DNA of 64,000 nucleotides. It comes from Candidatus Saccharimonadota bacterium. Its GTDB lineage: Bacteria > Patescibacteriota > Saccharimonadia > Saccharimonadales > Saccharimonadaceae. Positions within the stretch are counted from its first letter, which is position 1. Each line of letters begins with the position of its first letter. The translations under genes and the position numbers were made by a program. The stretch spans positions 3,501 through 67,500 of the forward strand of contig JAFQXN010000002.1 of the NCBI GenBank assembly GCA_017406905.1. The letters run 5' to 3'. This document shows positions 2,890 to 51,393 of the stretch, in pieces. The notes under the pieces are model-generated. The model worked only from the letters and a program-made list of their open reading frames with translations. It was not told where the DNA came from and did no database searches.

Positions 2890-5523
2890 TTATTGATTTT
2901 GAGATAGCCAGCCGTCCAAAAAGCCCTTCTGAGGCGTCTGGAGCGCGTCTGAGGCCTGTTGCGGGTCGGAAGCGGTAGTTTGCGCGATGTCAATGGGAGA
3001 CGCGTCTAGAGCGCTTCCAGTGGGCTCTGAGAGCGATTTTTCGGGAGCGGTATTTTCTTGTGCGAGCTTGACTTTTTCGGCAGCCGACCAACGGTCATTA
3101 ATTTCCCTTTCTACCTCAGTCCTAGTTTTGCCGTATTTGGTGGCCGAATAGACCTTGAGTGTCTTCATTAGCTCATCATTTGGTTCACCCATGAGAGATA
3201 TATCTGGCAAATTCATTGTGAAAGGCGTGGATGGCATACCAAACATCATTACCTTAGCAATAGCCGCACGATTTGGTGTCTTGGTAAGATCTTCGGCGGT
3301 GAAGGTAGGCGTAAAGGCTTTTACCATCAAATCAGCATCAGTTACGCCAATGCGGCCACAGATAATAGTGCCGACGTTACCAAGGAGGGCTTCCCGGATT
3401 TTCTCGGTGAGTTGAGTCATGAACTGATTCGCAACAATGAGATTGAGGCGATATTTGCGGGCTTCGGAGAGAATAGATTCGAAACTGTCGGTGGCAAAAT
3501 TCTGGAACTCGTCAACATAGAGACAGAAATCTTGGCGCTCACTTTCTGGAATATCCTGGCGGCTCATAGCGGCTTGCTGGAATTTCATTACAAAAATCAT
3601 ACCGAGGAGATTAGCGTTAATATCACCGAGGCGCCCCTTTGAGAGATTAACTAGGAAGATTTTTTTGGTATCCATAATCTCGCGGATATTAAAACCGGAT
3701 TTTACCTGGCCAAGAGTATTTCGCATGATGGTATTAGAGAGGAACGGCCCCCATTTTGAGGCGAACCAGGTGATGACCTCACCGGCGTCGTTGGATTTTT
3801 GAGAGGCCGGAAATTCTTTAGTCCAGTAATCATAGACTGATTTATCTGTGACATATTTGAGTTTGGATTTGACAAATTCTGGATCAGTAAAGCACTGAGG
3901 AATATCAATAAATGTAGCGCCGGCTGGATCTGACATAAGAAGCAAAGCGGCATTGCGGAACATATGTTGGCCACGGGGGCCGAAGAAGCCTTGATTCTGG
4001 GGATCGAAAAGGCTTTGAAGCATAGAAATTCCCTCTTGTACGATGAAATCCTTTTGGTCCGGACTGGTAAATTCGAACATATTCATACCGACAGGATGCT
4101 CAATGTCGGCTGGATCAAAATAAATGACGTCATCGATTCTCTCTTCTGGCACACGTTTAAGAATCGCTTCTACGGCGTCGCCGTGAGGATCGATGAAGGC
4201 AAAGCCGCGACCATCGCACATATCTTGAAAGGCGAGATTCTCAAGGAAGACAGATTTACCCATACCAGTCTGGCCGATGACGTATATGTGACGACGACGA
4301 TCGTCGTTATCGAGATAAATGGCTTTTTTAGAGCCGCGGAACTCGTTAGTGCCAAGGAAGAGGCCTTCGGTGGCAAGACGGGCTGGCCCGTCTACTTGCT
4401 TGGTCAACTGGCGTTCTACCTGGGAGTTTGGTATAGCGTTCTGCTCTGGTAGATGATAAATACTAGCTAATTCTACGCTATTTAGGATGTTGGAATGATT
4501 TTTGATTGGGAAAGTACGGAAGGTGAAATCTAGAGCGAACTTTTTCTGGTCTTTAAGGGCGTTGATTTTGAAACCATTAAACTCAGGTGAATCGAACTGA
4601 GAAAAAGCCGATGCCACACCTCCTAGAATCGCGTCTGAGCGGGGTTTAGACTTAGAGCTGGCAATGATGCGAATTAAGGTTTCGAAGGCCGGAAAACGCA
4701 TTTTGTTGGTGATGGCGGTGATTTCATCCTGTTTGACGCTGGTGATAGTAGTCGTCTGCTCGGTTTTTTCGTGTTCGCCGGGAACTTCCCAGGGGGCGCG
4801 GATAACGTCCATCGCGAAATCACCGATGCTTGCTCCGATAGTTTTTTGTTTTTTCCCTTTCTGCATACTCTCGACGTGTGTTTTAACGCTTTCTGACCAA
4901 CTTTTTTGTGCAGGACGGAATAAAATTTGTACAGCGGCACCTTCGTCTTTGCGCAGGCTAGAAAGTGCGTTTAAAATTGCCATCTGAGCATCACGCTGAG
5001 AGTCTTCGTAGGTAGTAATCGGATAATACGATTCTCTTTTAAGGCTAAGCTCGGCTCCAGATACCGCGCCGATTCCATCACCACCTCTAAAGATGTTGTC
5101 TTCGAGCTTCTCCTCGAGACGGGCGGTGGGATAGGCGGATTGGACGGCCTGCTTAACCGTCTCTGTCAATACTGCGGGCACTACGGCATAGTATTTGATA
5201 AAGCCATCTTTAGCGATGATTTCTAGGGAGAAGTGCCTCTGACCGTAGAGTTTGGTTTTTAGCCCTTTTGTGGCGGTGGAGGCAAGGATAGAGTACATTA
5301 CCTGGGCTTTAGAGATGGCCTCATTGGCGATGTCGCGCTTGTCACGGCCGTTGGCCTCAATGTCATCAGTGGTGGGTGGAAGACGAATCAATAGTGGTAC
5401 CATTTTAAGACTACGTTCGTAGCGTTTAACCTTGCGAAGATTAGAGATTTTAACGGCAAGAATAATGGCAATGAAGACCGACACCGCCACTACAGCAATT
5501 AGGATAACTACCCAGAGCGCCAT
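2890..5523 (-). CDS. VirD4/TraD-like (HerA/FtsK clade) ATPase with N-terminal TM anchor
   Basis: Walker A GQTGMGKS, Walker B LYVDEFQNF, SEARKYRLNLIVANQ, IDPHGD motif, N-terminal hydrophobic helix. Confidence 0.8.
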   Translation of the reverse strand: MALWVVILIAVVAVSVFIAIILAVKISNLRKVKRYERSLKMVPLLIRLPPTTDDIEANGRDKRDIANEAISKAQVMYSILASTATKGLKTKLYGQRHFSLEIIAKDGFIKYYAVVPAVLTETVKQAVQSAYPTARLEEKLEDNIFRGGDGIGAVSGAELSLKRESYYPITTYEDSQRDAQMAILNALSSLRKDEGAAVQILFRPAQKSWSESVKTHVESMQKGKKQKTIGASIGDFAMDVIRAPWEVPGEHEKTEQTTTITSVKQDEITAITNKMRFPAFETLIRIIASSKSKPRSDAILGGVASAFSQFDSPEFNGFKINALKDQKKFALDFTFRTFPIKNHSNILNSVELASIYHLPEQNAIPNSQVERQLTKQVDGPARLATEGLFLGTNEFRGSKKAIYLDNDDRRRHIYVIGQTGMGKSVFLENLAFQDMCDGRGFAFIDPHGDAVEAILKRVPEERIDDVIYFDPADIEHPVGMNMFEFTSPDQKDFIVQEGISMLQSLFDPQNQGFFGPRGQHMFRNAALLLMSDPAGATFIDIPQCFTDPEFVKSKLKYVTDKSVYDYWTKEFPASQKSNDAGEVITWFASKWGPFLSNTIMRNTLGQVKSGFNIREIMDTKKIFLVNLSKGRLGDINANLLGMIFVMKFQQAAMSRQDIPESERQDFCLYVDEFQNFATDSFESILSEARKYRLNLIVANQFMTQLTEKIREALLGNVGTIICGRIGVTDADLMVKAFTPTFTAEDLTKTPNRAAIAKVMMFGMPSTPFTMNLPDISLMGEPNDELMKTLKVYSATKYGKTRTEVEREINDRWSAAEKVKLAQENTAPEKSLSEPTGSALDASPIDIAQTTASDPQQASDALQTPQKGFLDGWLSQNQ

Positions 5524-5572: not shown

Positions 5573-6100
5573 TTAGGCTGCCCATGGTTCGTCTTCTCCT
5601 ATCGCGCGGTTGTATGAGCTTTTGAGGTTTCTTTCTACTAATTTCCAATATTCGTCGGTGGCACGAGCGATGTCACCACTTTTGGTGAATTGATGGATGA
5701 TTCCATCCATCTGGCGAACACCAGCTTTATTGAGTGTTTCTCCGGTCTTAATGGACTCTTCGGGGTGAAAAGTGGCCTCGGTAGAAGCACTGCTCGACGC
5801 AACGTCTAGCCCTGGCTGCTCAAGCTCAGTGACTACGCCCATGGGCGGCATGGTCGGAGTGATTTCTGCGGACATAATTGGGCTGTTGTGGCTACTTTCG
5901 GTACTATTTAGCGTGTTACTGCCAATGCTACGGAGGTCATGTTCGGCCGTGGAGCCCCAAGAAACTTGATTATTGGTAGTGTCTAGATTATTTTCTGGTT
6001 CAAAATTATTAACTTCTTCTGAGGCGGTGCCAGCGCCGGCGGTAAAGAAGGGTTCTTCTTGAGTAGGGGCAGCGGACTGCATAGTATGACCATAATCCAT
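5573..6100 (-). CDS. hypothetical acidic protein
   Basis: 175-aa ORF preceded by TGG-TAAAAT-6 nt-ATG. Confidence 0.7.
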   Translation of the reverse strand: MDYGHTMQSAAPTQEEPFFTAGAGTASEEVNNFEPENNLDTTNNQVSWGSTAEHDLRSIGSNTLNSTESSHNSPIMSAEITPTMPPMGVVTELEQPGLDVASSSASTEATFHPEESIKTGETLNKAGVRQMDGIIHQFTKSGDIARATDEYWKLVERNLKSSYNRAIGEDEPWAA

Positions 6101-6118: not shown

Positions 6119-6472
6119 TTAGATTCTTTTGTAGACTAAAAACTCAGCCAAAAACAGAAAGATAAAAATAAGGCTGATAGTCCATAGATCTACGGCCCCG
6201 AACGAACGCGCCATGAGCAACATAATGGGACAGAAAGCCATAACTGCGGAATAGAGGTAATCTTTACCGCGAAAAGTGTTCCTTCTGAGCGCAAGCTTAA
6301 TGAAACTGCGCATGATGAGTGTCATAATGCCAAAAGACACGATATAAATTGTTGTAAAAAATAATAAAACCCCGAACGGCCCAATTTCCGTCGGAGATGT
6401 AAAAATAAGCATAATGATTAAAGCTGCGAGTCCAATAATGCTTACTGTTGAGAGAATACGGTTATGCTTCAT
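6119..6472 (-). CDS. small 4-TM membrane protein
   Basis: 117-aa hydrophobic ORF preceded by TGC-TATAAT-6 nt-ATG. Confidence 0.75.
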   Translation of the reverse strand: MKHNRILSTVSIIGLAALIIMLIFTSPTEIGPFGVLLFFTTIYIVSFGIMTLIMRSFIKLALRRNTFRGKDYLYSAVMAFCPIMLLMARSFGAVDLWTISLIFIFLFLAEFLVYKRI

Positions 6473-6514
6473 AACCCTATTATAGCATATCTGGTTAAAT
6501 CCCCCAAGAATTTA

Positions 6515-6878
6515 TTGAAGGGTGAGCGGGGGGTTATCCGGTGCTAAAATCACAACTATTGACCGCAACCCCTGTCGCTTTTCCCTTTTTGACCGCTTCA
6601 CGCTAGGTGAAGCATTGTCCTTGTTAGCTATTTTCTTTCATTCTTGTTTATGTTTCTTTAATGTGCTAATGAAAGATTTGATCTAACGCGCTCTACGCTT
6701 TTGGTTTCTGTCGCTAAGGTCAAACCCTTTAGCGGAGCTCTAGGTAATTCCTAAGGTGTAATTTATGGCTAGAAATTACCTTTTCGCCCGCTAAAGTTTA
6801 CGGTTTATTCCTAGCTTTTGGCTTTTTCCTTTTCATTTTGTCCTTTGTTTTTAGTTTTTGTTTTAGTCATCTCGACTG
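6515..6878 (-). ncRNA. unannotated structured RNA or long leader (~365 nt), with a possible 12-aa uORF
   Basis: Sigma70 promoter just upstream. Four hairpins at 6714-6814, 6623-6687, 6595-6613 and 6518-6588. No long ORF. Confidence 0.55.
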
Positions 6879-6883
6879 TTTTA

Positions 6884-6912
6884 ATACTAGCATACATTGC
6901 GAAAAAAATCAA
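6884..6912 (-). promoter_or_regulatory. sigma70 promoter TTGATT-17-TAGTAT with extended -10 TG
   Basis: Minus strand reads ttgatt tttttcgcaatgtatgc tagtat. Confidence 0.6.
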
Positions 6913-6934
6913 TAGATTTGTTCGGCTTTTTAAA

Positions 6935-7011
6935 GTATTTTTTACAACGTTTTGCCAGTTTTTCCCTGTTTATGCCGGTTGTTTGAATTGTTGTATTTTT
7001 TACAACGTTTT
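6935..7011. repeat. 19-bp perfect direct repeat GTATTTTTTACAACGTTTT (6935-6953 and 6993-7011)
   Basis: Read directly from the sequence; 58-bp period. Confidence 0.9.
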
Positions 7012-7081
7012 TATGTTGTTTTGCGTAAATGATGGTAATGGGACATAAAAAATAGGCCTTTGGGGCTCGGATCGACATAAA

Positions 7082-7438
7082 TGGTGGAGCTGCCGGATAC
7101 TGCCTCCGGGTCCGAACTATCACTTGGATATGAATCTACGCGCATAGTTTTCTGTTTTATCTTGGCGGATATTATCAGCTGCAGAAAACGAAACTGATAA
7201 ATGCCATGGCTAGTTTTCGAGCTATTTCTCGCCAATTAAATAGCCTTATTCCCGTTGTATGATAATTTCAATCCTACGGAACCTCAGATTGAAACCAGCC
7301 TAGAAATAATAATTAGGCATAAGCTGGCATGTATGCTACATGCGCAGTTTGCGTGTTTTTAGCACTTATTTAATACTTACGGTATTTAATCGACGCGCAT
7401 CATATCTGTAAATAATCCGTCTAAGCTTTGTCAGCCCC
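7082..7438 (-). ncRNA. ssrA: tmRNA (tag AKNTQTAHVAYMPAYA*, 7363-7313)
   Basis: 5' end GGGGCTGA..AGAC and 3' end ..CCGGCAGCTCCACCA form the alanyl acceptor/T-arm. Resume context ATAAGT-GCT. Tag ends in Ala. Confidence 0.95.
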
Positions 7439-7479
7439 AACTACGGTATAGTATAGCATAAGAGTCAACAGATAGCAAT

Positions 7480-7587
7480 AGAAAAAGACCGGTAACTGCG
7501 AGGAAAACCGGTCTTTTGTAGAGTGTGGAGTTATTTTGGCTAATTTTTTGTTTTGACCTTTTGAATAATTTTTTTATTCAAAAGCTA
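7480..7587 (-). ncRNA. candidate ~105-nt sRNA
   Basis: Perfect TTGACA-17-TATAAT promoter (7621-7593), 5' hairpin CTTTTGAATAA/TTATTCAAAAG, intrinsic terminator, no AUG. Confidence 0.6.
7482..7517 (-). terminator. intrinsic terminator AAAAGACCGGT-13-ACCGGTCTTTT
   Basis: 11-bp perfect inverted repeat with U-tract. Confidence 0.8.
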
Positions 7588-7592
7588 TCTCT

Positions 7593-7621
7593 ATTATAGT
7601 GCGTAAAAATGCTAATGTCAA
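7593..7621 (-). promoter_or_regulatory. consensus sigma70 promoter TTGACA-17-TATAAT
   Basis: Minus strand reads ttgaca ttagcatttttacgcac tataat. Confidence 0.8.
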
Positions 7622-7807
7622 TACATTTTTCATACTTTTTTTATTCAAAATGCTTCGAGTTTTCCACAACTTCACCCTGGCCTACAGATTATGTATTGAG
7701 GTAATTTTATGCAAAAATGCACAAAAACTTTGAACAATTTTGTGTATTAAAGCATAGGCTTACGGTAGGGGGTTGAAATATGTTTACCCCTGTGCTAAAA
7801 GGGGTGC

Positions 7808-9316
7808 ATGATAGCTAAAATACATTCTGCAATTCCCTACGGCTTCGAAGGAAAGCTGGTCGAAGTCGAAGGAGATATGAATCGGGGGTTACCAGCTTTC
7901 AATATCGTGGGCATGGCAAACAAAACCATAAATGAGGCAAAGGAAAGGGTGCGAAGCGCAATAGTAAACTCAGATTTTTCGTTCCCCGATAAAAAAGTGA
8001 CGATCAGTTTAGCTCCAGCCGAACTGATGAAGGATGGGGCATATCTGGATTTACCGATTGCGCTCTCTGTACTACTGCTGTCTGGACAGCTAGTAAAGGG
8101 CGATGTGGCAGATAGGTTGTTCGTGGGTGAATTGTCGCTGAATGGTGAAATTCGGCCCGTGAGAGGCATTATAAACATCGTAGAGGCCGCCAAAAAGGCC
8201 GGATATAAGGAAATATACGTCCCGCGCAAAAATCTCACACAGGCTTCCTTGGTCACCGGAATAGACATATATGGCTTAGATACCTTGCAAAATCTATTCT
8301 TGGGACTAAAGAACCAGATTACGCTAGCTGTGGCAAGTGGAGCGGTGGCGCCAAAAAATGAAGATGAAGAGAGTACGGATGGCCCAGTATTAGATCATAT
8401 CAGGGGTCAGAAATTAGCAAAAAGGGCGATGGAGATTGCAATTGCCGGGCATCATAATATCTTGATTTCTGGGCCGCCCGGGGCGGGCAAAACGCTGCTT
8501 GCGAAGGCGGCAGCCAATCTGTTACCAAAATTAACTTCGGTAGAAAAAGTTGATATTACGAAAATTTATTCGATTGCAGGATTATCTACAGATGAAATAG
8601 TAGAGGTGCGACCGTTTCGGGATCCGCATCATACGGCGAGTTCAATCTCGATGATAGGTGGGGCGACTGGCCCAGGGGAGATTTCGTTGGCGCATAAGGG
8701 TATTTTATTTCTTGATGAGATACCAGAATTTCCGCGGTCGGTGTTAGAGGCCTTAAGACAGCCACTTGAGAATAAGACGATTTCGATTTCACGGGCGAAT
8801 CGCAAAACAACTTACCCAGCAGACTTCATGTTAGTAGCGACGATGAACCCCTGTCCGTGCGGATATTTGGGCGACCCCACGCATGAGTGTAAGTGCACAG
8901 AAACTCAGATTCATAATTACCAGAAAAAGCTTTCTGGACCGCTGTTTGACAGGATAGATATGAATGTTGAAGCCGAAAAGGTAGATAATCGGCACTTGCG
9001 AGCTAAAATTGCAGTAACTGCGGAAGAGCATAGTGTTGTAAAAAATAATATAACAGGGGCAATTTTACGCCAAAAGGCGAGGTACGGGCGGGAAGGGTTT
9101 TACAATAGTTCCCTTTCTTCATTTGAAGTATCTAATTTATTGAAGCTCGAACCAAGGGCCGAGAAGTTACTATCCGATGCTTCGGAGAAATTAAATTTGT
9201 CAGCGAGATCTTACTTTAAGACTATCAAGGTCGCCCAAACAATCGCCGACCTTGATAATTCGGAAATGATTTTGGCAAAACATTTGGCCGAGGCTCTGAT
9301 ATACAGAAGAAGATAG
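7808..9316 (+). CDS. comM: YifB/ComM Mg-chelatase-like AAA+ ATPase
   Basis: GPPGAGKT, RPFRDPHH, GEISLAHKGILFLDE, NPCPCGY, SARSY motifs. Confidence 0.92.
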   Translation: MIAKIHSAIPYGFEGKLVEVEGDMNRGLPAFNIVGMANKTINEAKERVRSAIVNSDFSFPDKKVTISLAPAELMKDGAYLDLPIALSVLLLSGQLVKGDVADRLFVGELSLNGEIRPVRGIINIVEAAKKAGYKEIYVPRKNLTQASLVTGIDIYGLDTLQNLFLGLKNQITLAVASGAVAPKNEDEESTDGPVLDHIRGQKLAKRAMEIAIAGHHNILISGPPGAGKTLLAKAAANLLPKLTSVEKVDITKIYSIAGLSTDEIVEVRPFRDPHHTASSISMIGGATGPGEISLAHKGILFLDEIPEFPRSVLEALRQPLENKTISISRANRKTTYPADFMLVATMNPCPCGYLGDPTHECKCTETQIHNYQKKLSGPLFDRIDMNVEAEKVDNRHLRAKIAVTAEEHSVVKNNITGAILRQKARYGREGFYNSSLSSFEVSNLLKLEPRAEKLLSDASEKLNLSARSYFKTIKVAQTIADLDNSEMILAKHLAEALIYRRR

Positions 9317-49809: not shown

Positions 49810-49855
49810 GTTATTATTATACCATATTTTTTGGTTTTGCGAAAATTGTGGAAAA

Positions 49856-49910
49856 ACACTATATTTGGTGTAAAAAAAGTGTTGACAGCACTATATATGG
49901 TGTCTATAAT
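49856..49910 (+). promoter_or_regulatory. tandem NrdR boxes (49856-49871, 49888-49903) overlapping TTGACA-17-TATAAT
   Basis: ACACTATATTTGGTGT and GCACTATATATGGTGT match the acaCwAtATaTwGtgt consensus, 32 bp apart. Confidence 0.88.
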
Positions 49911-49975: not shown

Positions 49976-50413
49976 ATGAAGAAAATTATTTATCGAAACC
50001 AGAATGATGCTGAAAATTTTGACATGAAGAGATTTTTGAAATCACTCGCTAGATACGCAAAAGTGTCAGAAAAGGAGGCTGAAGCAGCTTTGGCAGAATT
50101 TGACCAGTATGAGACGATGCACGTATCGTGCCTGGTAGAGGTAGGAATGAAATTGATTGGCGAGAAAGCCGGCGACAAGGCGATGAAAGAGTATTTTGAG
50201 GAGTATGCGGATTATTTTGATGAGGGCAAATTTGAGCGCTTACGCCGAATTACTGGCTATTTGGTAGGGACTTTAGACCGTTGGAATGATGCAAAAAAGG
50301 CAGAGGAGAAGGCGCGGGTAAAGCACTGCGTAAATTCATCGATTGACGACGCGGCACGCTTGGTAGCGCTTGAAACACAAGCAATGGAGCAAAATATTGC
50401 TTACGCGCACTAA
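49976..50413 (+). CDS. mini NrdD-like protein (ATP-cone-like N-terminus plus glycyl-radical C-terminal motif)
   Basis: FERLRRITGYLVGTLDRWNDAKKAEEKARVKH; SD GAAAGGA; NrdR boxes upstream. Confidence 0.8.
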   Translation: MKKIIYRNQNDAENFDMKRFLKSLARYAKVSEKEAEAALAEFDQYETMHVSCLVEVGMKLIGEKAGDKAMKEYFEEYADYFDEGKFERLRRITGYLVGTLDRWNDAKKAEEKARVKHCVNSSIDDAARLVALETQAMEQNIAYAH

Positions 50414-51393
50414 TTTTCTAGTAATTTGCAGATGAGGGCTATGAGTAGCCCTTTTTCTGTGGGATTAGATTCGGCAATTAGAAGGGCGAGCGCAGTGAGG
50501 GCGCGGTCGGAAATTTTGGTTTCGCCGTTTTTAGTGAGATGATAATCGTTGATGGTGAGAAAGACTACAAAAAGAAGAGCGCCGATACGTTTGTTGCCAT
50601 CATAAAATGGGTGGTCTTTGATGACTAAATAGAGGAGATTGGCGGCCTTTTCAGCGATGGACGGATAGAGATCCTGTTGGTCAAAAGTTTGGGTGATGGC
50701 GCCAAGGGATGATTCAAATGAAGCGCCGCGAGGTTTGCCAAAAAGAGCGTTACCCTTGACATTTTTCTTTAACTGTGATATAATGTCATTACACTCGGTT
50801 GGAGTGAGGGTTTTTGTAGCTTTCTTCCCTTTGGAGAAAGAGATATGACCTTCATCATATTCTTGTAAAGCTTTGAAGCTGGGGGCATACTTAGTAATGA
50901 CTTCGAGGACGCCGCCGGCTTCACCTGCGGAAAGTTCAGAGGTGGCGACGAGGCGCTTGACGATGCTAAGAGCGCCTTCGATTTCACGAAGCTTCTTGGT
51001 ATCGAGCTCTTTGAGGCGATGTTCATTGATGGCTGCACCATCTACTACATAATGGCGAAGAACCTTAGTAGCCCAGATACGGAAATCTGTGGCTTTTTTG
51101 GAATTGACACGGTAGCCGACTGAGATAATGGCGTCGAGATTGTAGGTGTTGACTTCGCGGGTGACGTTCCTGGAGCCTTCTTTGCGAACTATTAAGGTTT
51201 TCTTAATGGTTCGATCAGCCTCAAGTTCGCCTTCATTATAGATGCGTTTGAGGTGCATATTGATATTCGGCACTGTAACGTCGAATAATTGAGCTATCTG
51301 AGCCTGGGTGGCCCAGATGGTTTCCTTGGCAGCGTCGACATTAAAAATTACCTCGCCCTTCGCTACTTTGTAAATCTCAATTCCCTTCTCCAT
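50410..51393 (-). CDS. RhuM-like domain fused to a Fic/Doc domain
   Basis: TIWATQAQIAQLF, YNLDAIISVGYRVNS (RhuM); HPFYDGNKRIG (Fic/Doc). Confidence 0.9.
   Translation of the reverse strand: MEKGIEIYKVAKGEVIFNVDAAKETIWATQAQIAQLFDVTVPNINMHLKRIYNEGELEADRTIKKTLIVRKEGSRNVTREVNTYNLDAIISVGYRVNSKKATDFRIWATKVLRHYVVDGAAINEHRLKELDTKKLREIEGALSIVKRLVATSELSAGEAGGVLEVITKYAPSFKALQEYDEGHISFSKGKKATKTLTPTECNDIISQLKKNVKGNALFGKPRGASFESSLGAITQTFDQQDLYPSIAEKAANLLYLVIKDHPFYDGNKRIGALLFVVFLTINDYHLTKNGETKISDRALTALALLIAESNPTEKGLLIALICKLLEN

Follow-up and report, generated by a model that had tools for sequence, protein, structure and literature searches.

A previously undescribed family of small RNA genes beside tmRNA in Saccharibacteria

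We identified a small RNA gene on the minus strand between the tmRNA gene and comM in the genome of a ruminant-gut Saccharibacteria (TM7) organism that is Nanosyncoccus-like. The gene adjoins the tmRNA gene, specifies a predicted RNA of ~108 nt, and is very probably a real, independent noncoding RNA gene (Table 1). The window, here and below, is the whole stretch of DNA that was analysed, 64,000 nucleotides of contig JAFQXN010000002.1. The promoter, both hairpins and the unpaired core of the gene are conserved as one module, together with a box upstream of the promoter, in ~196 of 203 Saccharibacteria loci, and the sRNA is a well-supported, previously undescribed family of this group. The observations as a whole are best explained by an independent, trans-acting, C-rich sRNA gene, a reading to which we assign a probability of roughly 0.45. 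A literature search of partial coverage returned no description of this sRNA, and an earlier mention elsewhere is possible; a preprint on the TM7x transcriptome states that the organism has 'no currently validated small RNAs' (bioRxiv 10.1101/2022.03.25.485537).

Table 1. Features of the sRNA locus, in window coordinates
Feature	Position	Strand	Basis
Upstream box TTGTGGAAAACTC, candidate transcription-factor site, part of the sRNA module	7658..7670	-	conservation among relatives
A/T-rich element just 5′ of the −35 element; 86% copy of the 28-nt hairpin region	7623..7650	-	direct-repeat comparison
Promoter, sigma-70-type TTGACA-17-TATAAT	7593..7621	-	12/12 consensus positions
Predicted RNA, ~108 nt, starting UAGC	7479..7587	-	model R1 match and conservation onset; ends predicted
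5′ hairpin P1, 11 bp, loop of 5	7558..7584	-	fold and inverted-repeat arms
Unpaired A/C-rich region, ~40 nt	7518..7557	-	unpaired in MFE and centroid folds
Invariant 20-mer AAAAUAACUCCACACUCUAC	7537-7518	-	inside unpaired region
Terminator hairpin P2, 11 bp, 13-nt loop	7483..7517	-	fold and inverted-repeat arms
Invariant 12-mer UUCCUCGCAGUU	7505-7494	-	P2 loop positions
U-run 3′ of the terminator stem	7478..7482	-	read from sequence
tmRNA gene, conserved neighbour, outside the sRNA	7082..7438	-	Rfam RF00023, 89.7 bits, full length

The original prediction had proposed a perfect TTGACA-17-TATAAT promoter, and every consensus position is indeed matched, with TTGACA at 7621-7616, a 17-nt spacer, and TATAAT at 7598-7593 on the minus strand. 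Three such perfect sites are observed in the 64-kb window, versus 0.03 expected. The ComM/Mg-chelatase-like gene starts divergently from the sRNA gene, at 7808 on the plus strand. The 5′ hairpin, the A/C-rich single-stranded core and the 11-bp intrinsic terminator that had been foreseen are all present where they were proposed and are supported by folding. Specifically, the arms of P1 (7584-7574 and 7568-7558) directly follow the expected start and are 100% complementary, as are the arms of P2 (7517-7507 and 7493-7483), which are followed by UUUUU. The P2 stem is bordered by an A-run and a U-run in the style of a bidirectional terminator, the U-run reading UUUUU or UUCUUCU in relatives; a simple terminator scan missed P2 because the scan permits loops of at most 8. 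The 110-nt RNA folds with a minimum free energy of −24.3 kcal/mol (z = −5.7), and none of 200 dinucleotide shuffles is equally stable. A covariance model of the RNA (R1) finds one copy in the window (7477-7587, 132.5 bits), and the transcript is predicted to start at ~7587 and to end at ~7479. The expected lack of AUG is borne out across 7587-7478 on the minus strand, where GUG is absent as well; the sole UUG frame has 13 codons and is broken in relatives by 1-2-nt linker indels.

The promoter is conserved together with the RNA. Of 123 unique homologues, 122 have TTGAC and 113 have a spacer of 17 nt before TAWWWT. In the 74 loci found through ComM (see below), the −35 element is invariant, the −10 element reads TATAAT or TATTAT, and conservation restarts exactly at UAGC, 5-6 nt after the −10 element. 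Further upstream, the TGTGGAAAA box occurs in 114 of 123 unique upstream regions, and in 3 more in reversed orientation; its distance to the −35 element is 37-38 nt in 96 upstream regions. The box takes the form of a palindrome, TTCCACATGTGGAA, in Nanosynbacter loci and moves with the sRNA on inversion of the module. Found in either orientation and at a fixed distance, it looks like a transcription-factor site, as which it probably serves. A role of the TGTGGAAAAC box as a general promoter element was rejected, given that the exact box has a single match in the window and that matches with one mismatch are at chance level.

The region between the box and the −35 element contains an A/T-rich element that forms part of a repeat. 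A 15-bp direct repeat had been proposed to flank the promoter, and in this genome it does: the window contains just two exact copies of the 15-mer TTTTTTTATTCAAAA, at 7569 and 7636, and the repeat extends to 28 nt with 86% identity. The exact repeat is, however, specific to a subgroup, and most relatives read AAAATTGTTCAAAA at the position of the A/T-rich element, a sequence resembling the 3′ arm of P1. TTCAAAA is found at this position in 66 of 123 upstream regions and AAATWRTWCAAAA in 52 of 123. The element may act as an UP element or an operator.

The other parts of the window with related promoter elements were also recorded. A near-match to the TGTGGAAAAC box at 49847 adjoins the NrdR-like boxes of a different promoter. 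The second perfect TTGACA-17-TATAAT promoter (49857-49910, plus strand), with NrdR-box-like palindromes ACACTATATTTGGTGT upstream and CACTATATATGGTG in its spacer, precedes a ~145-aa ORF (49977-50413, plus strand) in which RITGYLVG is a glycyl-radical-like motif, as judged from sequence alone. The third perfect consensus promoter (50756-50784, plus strand) lies inside and antisense to a 327-aa ORF (50410-51393, minus strand), and it could be an antisense promoter or a chance occurrence.

To define the family, we used the neighbouring ComM protein to fetch 80 loci from species-representative genomes, at ComM amino-acid identities of 54-81%. These loci belong to Candidatus Saccharibacteria or Nanosyncoccus MAGs, mostly from ruminant gut, save one contig binned as Bacteroidales, and ~75 of the 80 contain a stretch that matches window positions 7669-7476 at 80-93% DNA identity. 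Six species have an exact copy of a 47-nt segment of the RNA. Furthermore, a two-anchor pattern search (AACTCCACA, a gap of 12-40 nt, TTCCTCGCAGTT) matched at least 120 species genomes; the matches listed are all Saccharibacteria save one contig, and include oral Nanosynbacter, Nanosyncoccus nanoralicus, and MAGs from mouse and horse gut. NCBI assigns Nanosynbacter and Nanosyncoccus to different orders. The Bacteroidales-binned exception (L090 = L026) has the same ComM-sRNA-tmRNA region and is probably mis-binned. A profile search recovered the RNA in ~196 of 203 related loci, with 123 distinct sequences. No match to the sRNA was found among IMG/VR viral contigs, and a phage origin was rejected on this ground. 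The family thus appears confined, as far as seen, to Saccharibacteria. Two MAGs contain two different sRNA copies each on separate contigs (L029/L085 and L142/L148), which could reflect mixed bins or true paralogues, and locus L147 has a degenerate second copy at 3867-3937, ~200 nt downstream of the first.

The sRNA is better conserved than tmRNA in 67 of 70 loci, with a median identity to the window of 92% versus 83%. We base statements on invariance on the 74 ComM-derived loci; since these were found through ComM, their choice is independent of the RNA sequence. Invariance in loci L087 and above would be circular, because those loci were found with the very words in question. In the 74 loci, neither the 20-mer AAAAUAACUCCACACUCUAC nor the 12 nt UUCCUCGCAGUU within the P2 loop vary. 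The 20-mer can be read as a pair of CUCYACA units, of which some lineages have extra or perfect copies (for example, CUCCACACUCCACAC). The linker 5′ of the 20-mer tolerates indels, and L143 has an extra hairpin inserted.

Both helices are supported by covariation. In a covariance-model alignment, 95% of cells are paired and 15 of 23 pairs change on both sides, values that 0 of 500 shuffles reach, and all 11 P2 pairs show compensatory changes in this model-fitted alignment. A plain MAFFT alignment, which is agnostic of structure, also gives 95% paired cells, with double changes at nine pairs (0 of 500 shuffles) and compensatory changes at 5 of 10 P2 pairs. In P1, both-side changes occur at four pairs, the clearest covarying pair being U-A 38, C-G 26 and U-G 6. 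The P2 stem occurs as GACCGG, GGCCGG, AGCCGG, GGUCGG, GUCAG, UCCGG and other variants, around a constant loop. P2 escaped RNAalifold in the raw MAFFT alignment of 118 sequences, where indels had shifted the stem out of register; the covariance-model alignment and the smaller MAFFT alignment both resolve it. The self-contained sRNA gene of the original prediction is thereby borne out by a module with homologues in ~196 of 203 loci, by the covariation of both P1 and P2, and by a promoter of its own that is kept through rearrangements.

The alignments also indicate on which strand, and at which level, the constraint acts. G-U and U-G cells number 20, versus 4 for A-C and C-A, and the constraint therefore acts on the minus-strand transcript rather than on a DNA palindrome or the opposite strand. 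This one-sided wobble pattern bears on the idea of a purely DNA-level element with a functionless transcript, consisting of promoter operators or of a recombination or att site by ssrA, a gene well known as a hotspot of integration. The promoter does have palindromic and repeated A/T-rich elements around it, the TGTGGAAAAC box does occur in either orientation, and there are local inversions around ssrA; yet, besides the wobbles, there is covariation in the terminator stem around a fixed loop, the consensus promoter is directed into the element, and viral contigs have no match. We consider a purely DNA-level element highly improbable.

The fixed loop also invites a reading as a riboswitch-like or pseudoknotted sensor, in which core UAACU would pair with AGUUA at the 3′ side of the P2 loop in an H-type pseudoknot that tunes termination or stability. 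Consistent with such pairing, the complementary 5-mers adjoin invariant loop residues, the one variable pair gives U-A 95, A-U 10 and U-G 5 versus 12 mismatches, and the loop and core are conserved far beyond the needs of a plain terminator. However, four of the five pairs never vary and so give no covariation, and the fifth base, A7493 in the main class, already closes the covarying P2, for which reason the UAACU:AGUUA pseudoknot is rated unproven. In addition, no Rfam riboswitch matches, and no gene is consistently downstream: a riboswitch or attenuator would have a conserved downstream gene under its control, and here the downstream neighbour varies with the arrangement. A sensor is accordingly a very unlikely identity for the RNA.

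We then compared the position of the sRNA relative to tmRNA among relatives. The two genes lie 23-850 nt apart in 190 of 196 loci, in three arrangements: tmRNA is downstream on the opposite strand (convergent) in 94 of the 190, downstream on the same strand (tandem, as in the window) in 61, and upstream on the same strand in 35. The sRNA retains its box, promoter and terminator in all three. The original prediction of a three-RNA cluster on one strand is therefore true of this genome and fails for the 94 relatives with tmRNA on the opposite strand. The 3′ ends of the two genes are as close as 23-26 nt in convergent genomes, where the P2 hairpin probably terminates both. Order and orientation vary by species across loci L001-L203, which implies that whole modules of RNA genes were repeatedly inverted or transposed in small local events.

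The three arrangements argue that the sRNA is not a tmRNA leader, and, together with the wide conservation, they dispel the concern that it might be only an attenuated tmRNA leader lacking conservation. A role in cis as a leader or attenuator of tmRNA, or an origin as a by-product when the tmRNA precursor is processed, would fit the tandem arrangement on the same strand, in which the window and the other such loci (61 of 190) have the sRNA 34-149 nt upstream of tmRNA (823 nt in one locus), and one RNA-Seq contig runs from the sRNA terminator into the 5′ part of tmRNA (7353-7515, X4). Against this stand the convergent loci and those with tmRNA upstream, the strong terminator with a covarying stem that separates the two genes, and a promoter-like TTGCTA-17-TATACT with TG between them. 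The sRNA is thus neither always directly upstream on the same strand nor devoid of its own terminator, as a leader would be, and we regard this interpretation as scarcely tenable.

Direct pairing between the two RNAs was also considered and gained no support. Full-length sRNA-tmRNA duplex folding in 118 species gave only long, inconsistent structures, and a 7-nt match between loop CGCAGUU and tmRNA AACUGCG is at chance level (an estimated ~0.13 per tmRNA). The tmRNA itself was found by Rfam and missed by ARAGORN. Its T-loop reads GGCAGUA versus the canonical UUCRANY, and relatives share GGAGGCAGUAUCC; read from the sequence, it may have a lineage-specific, non-canonical tRNA-like domain.

Expression was viewed in assembled Logan contigs of public runs, which contain mixed strains. 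In X1, X2 and X4, from three studies, the depth of the sRNA region is similar to or above that of tmRNA, and X1 and X4 contain contigs of 102-104 nt that run exactly from 7486 to 7587. The ends of such contigs may be de Bruijn graph branch points at which inter-strain conservation stops. In X4, a true rumen RNA-Seq library, the sRNA bins stand at 4.8-4.9 and the coding bins at 0-1.5 over a 4.9-kb stretch, coverage being highest in the sRNA bins and in one block (5.4) of the large RNA nearby. X6, X28 and X40 have DNA-like even coverage and kilobase contigs. In the X7 metatranscriptome, tmRNA is covered 2000-3000x and the sRNA 0, a negative result, although it may reflect size selection. Transcription of the sRNA is supported by the contigs, its ends being predicted and not mapped.

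The large RNA lies downstream of tmRNA. The words that the core of the sRNA had been noted to share with this 365-nt RNA are not significant: the window has 5 occurrences of AAAACAAAAA and 12 of AGCCAAAA, at chance level, and since both are frequent in this A-rich genome, sharing them with a neighbouring RNA means little. The region of the large RNA (6520-7020) is 75-80% identical in ~120-160 related loci and has near-invariant blocks, among them a long hairpin (6796-6727) and a promoter-like sequence, TTGATT-17-TGcTAGTAT, at ~6918-6888. It contains no ORF above 33 aa on the minus strand and has no Rfam match, and is probably another undescribed, larger noncoding RNA, the minus strand and the ends being tentative. 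Beyond it, an extended −10 element, TGCTATAAT (6478-6489, minus strand), ends ~8 nt before the ATG of a 117-aa ORF (6119-6472, minus strand) with no Pfam match, which suggests that the mRNA of this ORF may be leaderless. An 877-aa ORF (2893-5523, minus strand) has weak matches to the TraG/TraD C-terminal domain and to HerA/AAA, and is possibly a type IV secretion coupling protein; after it come two ORFs without Pfam match, at 5576-6100 and 6122-6472.

On the basis of this architecture, we propose how the sRNA may work. Transcription would start at ~7587 from the consensus sigma-70 promoter, which a factor binding the TGTGGAAAAC box at its fixed distance probably modulates, and the RNA would fold into a 5′ hairpin, a ~40-nt unpaired A/C-rich stretch and an intrinsic terminator hairpin. 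The sRNA probably acts in trans, and it would do so through two exposed and invariant surfaces that are C-rich and G-poor, AAAAUAACUCCACACUCUAC and the P2-loop UUCCUCGCAGUU. Its most likely action would be to pair, as an antisense RNA independent of Hfq, with mRNAs at their G-rich ribosome-binding regions. Specifically, each surface holds one anti-Shine-Dalgarno-like tetramer (CUCC and CCUC), which makes pairing with ribosome-binding sites in the RsaE/RoxS manner the most economical mechanism. The apparent anti-Shine-Dalgarno resemblance consists of these two tetramers, and pairing with ribosome-binding sites, suggested by analogy, is a tentative assignment that we hold at somewhat short of even odds.

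A search for partners within the window gave a null result. With the core and the loop as queries, RNAduplex found nothing beyond shuffled seeds on either strand of the 64-kb window, the best non-self duplexes being −26.7 and −27.4 kcal/mol versus shuffled-seed minima down to −23.4 and −26.8 kcal/mol; the top core duplex (22627, plus strand) lies antisense within a gene. Neither tmRNA nor RNase P RNA nor the neighbouring large RNA showed complementarity in this window scan.

Invariant over such divergent loci, the 20 and 12 nt exceed what a base-pairing seed usually needs, and fit a protein or RNP partner almost equally well. The leading rival is accordingly a housekeeping RNP or protein-sequestering RNA, in which the CUCYACA repeats and the loop would serve to bind protein rather than as antisense seeds. 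Candidate partners are single-strand binders of the KH, S1 or cold-shock type, Rho, and trans-translation factors, the last of these because linkage to ssrA persists. Invariant segments and conservation above that of tmRNA are typical of RNP RNAs, the CUCCACA unit is duplicated in L094, L161, L126, L154 and L193 in the manner of protein-binding repeats, and the consensus promoter suggests abundance. In addition, 190 of 196 loci keep the sRNA no more than 850 nt from tmRNA through three rearrangements, and the window yielded no mRNA target. However, no partner protein is co-located, the neighbours being comM, infC-rpmI-rplT-rpmB, two ORFs without Pfam match and a TraG-like gene; the tmRNA linkage may be no more than a consequence of local inversions, the genome being small and highly syntenic; and the null result of the window scan for tmRNA, RNase P RNA and the large RNA counts against it too. 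We judge an RNP or protein-sequestering RNA somewhat unlikely. A phylum-specific stable RNA that forms an RNP via the CUCYACA repeats and the loop, and is coupled to trans-translation or ribosome function, we judge decidedly unlikely; if true, it would account for the tighter-than-tmRNA conservation and the lasting ssrA linkage, and a tie to trans-translation would give that system, whose parts are believed to be all known, a further component.

Saccharibacteria are ultrasmall epibionts with genomes below 1 Mb and few recognisable regulators. The RNA gene described here is defined in sequence, supported by covariation, and found in Saccharibacteria from the mouth, the gut and wastewater, among them Nanosynbacter, a genus that can be cultivated. 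It offers a testable entry point to the post-transcriptional or RNP biology of the Candidate Phyla Radiation, and the invariant 20-mer and 12-mer could be a compact lineage marker in metatranscriptomes.

We finally compared the sRNA with known RNA families. At the gathering threshold, Rfam finds only tmRNA, RNase P RNA and tRNAs in the whole window, and a search of 6400-7850 at E-values up to 10 gave no real family over the sRNA, the matches there being junk. SRP RNA is a long closed helix with a GNRA-capped domain IV; it was rejected as an identity (RF00169/RF01854), the sRNA having no Rfam match, no long terminal helix and no GNRA in either loop. 6S RNA, a ~180-nt rod with a central bubble, was rejected too (RF00013), with no Rfam match and a molecule of 108 nt that is mostly unpaired. 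The sRNA does resemble the housekeeping RNAs (4.5S/SRP, 6S, RNase P and tmRNA) in that it is phylum-wide and probably single-copy, with a consensus-strength promoter and invariant unpaired nucleotides, and it clusters with other stable-RNA genes, next to tmRNA and 3.3 kb from RNase P RNA (11188-10846, minus strand, by Rfam). It differs from them in that most of the molecule is unpaired and their defining structures are missing. With protein-sponge sRNAs such as CrcZ/CrcY (A-rich CA motifs) and CsrB (GGA repeats) it shares repeated short unpaired motifs in A-rich sequence, but it has only two CUCYACA repeats (extra ones in some lineages), and the motif is unlike the known ones.

The C-rich, Hfq-independent sRNAs of Firmicutes, RsaE/RoxS, act on G-rich ribosome-binding sites. 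The RsaE/RoxS covariance model (RF01820) gave no match, either at the gathering threshold or at E-values up to 10. The likeness is one of design: both are ~100 nt and have a hairpin at the 5′ end, a single-stranded segment rich in C and poor in G, a further C-rich motif in a hairpin loop and an intrinsic terminator, and both are conserved to a degree unusually high for an sRNA. The motifs differ, being UCCC/CCCC in RsaE/RoxS and CUCC/CCUC within CUCYACA and UUCCUCGCAGUU here, and the phylum is another one. In more general terms, the gene has what marks a trans-encoded, intrinsically terminated sRNA: a conserved promoter of its own, a covarying Rho-independent terminator with a U-run, and no conserved ORF.
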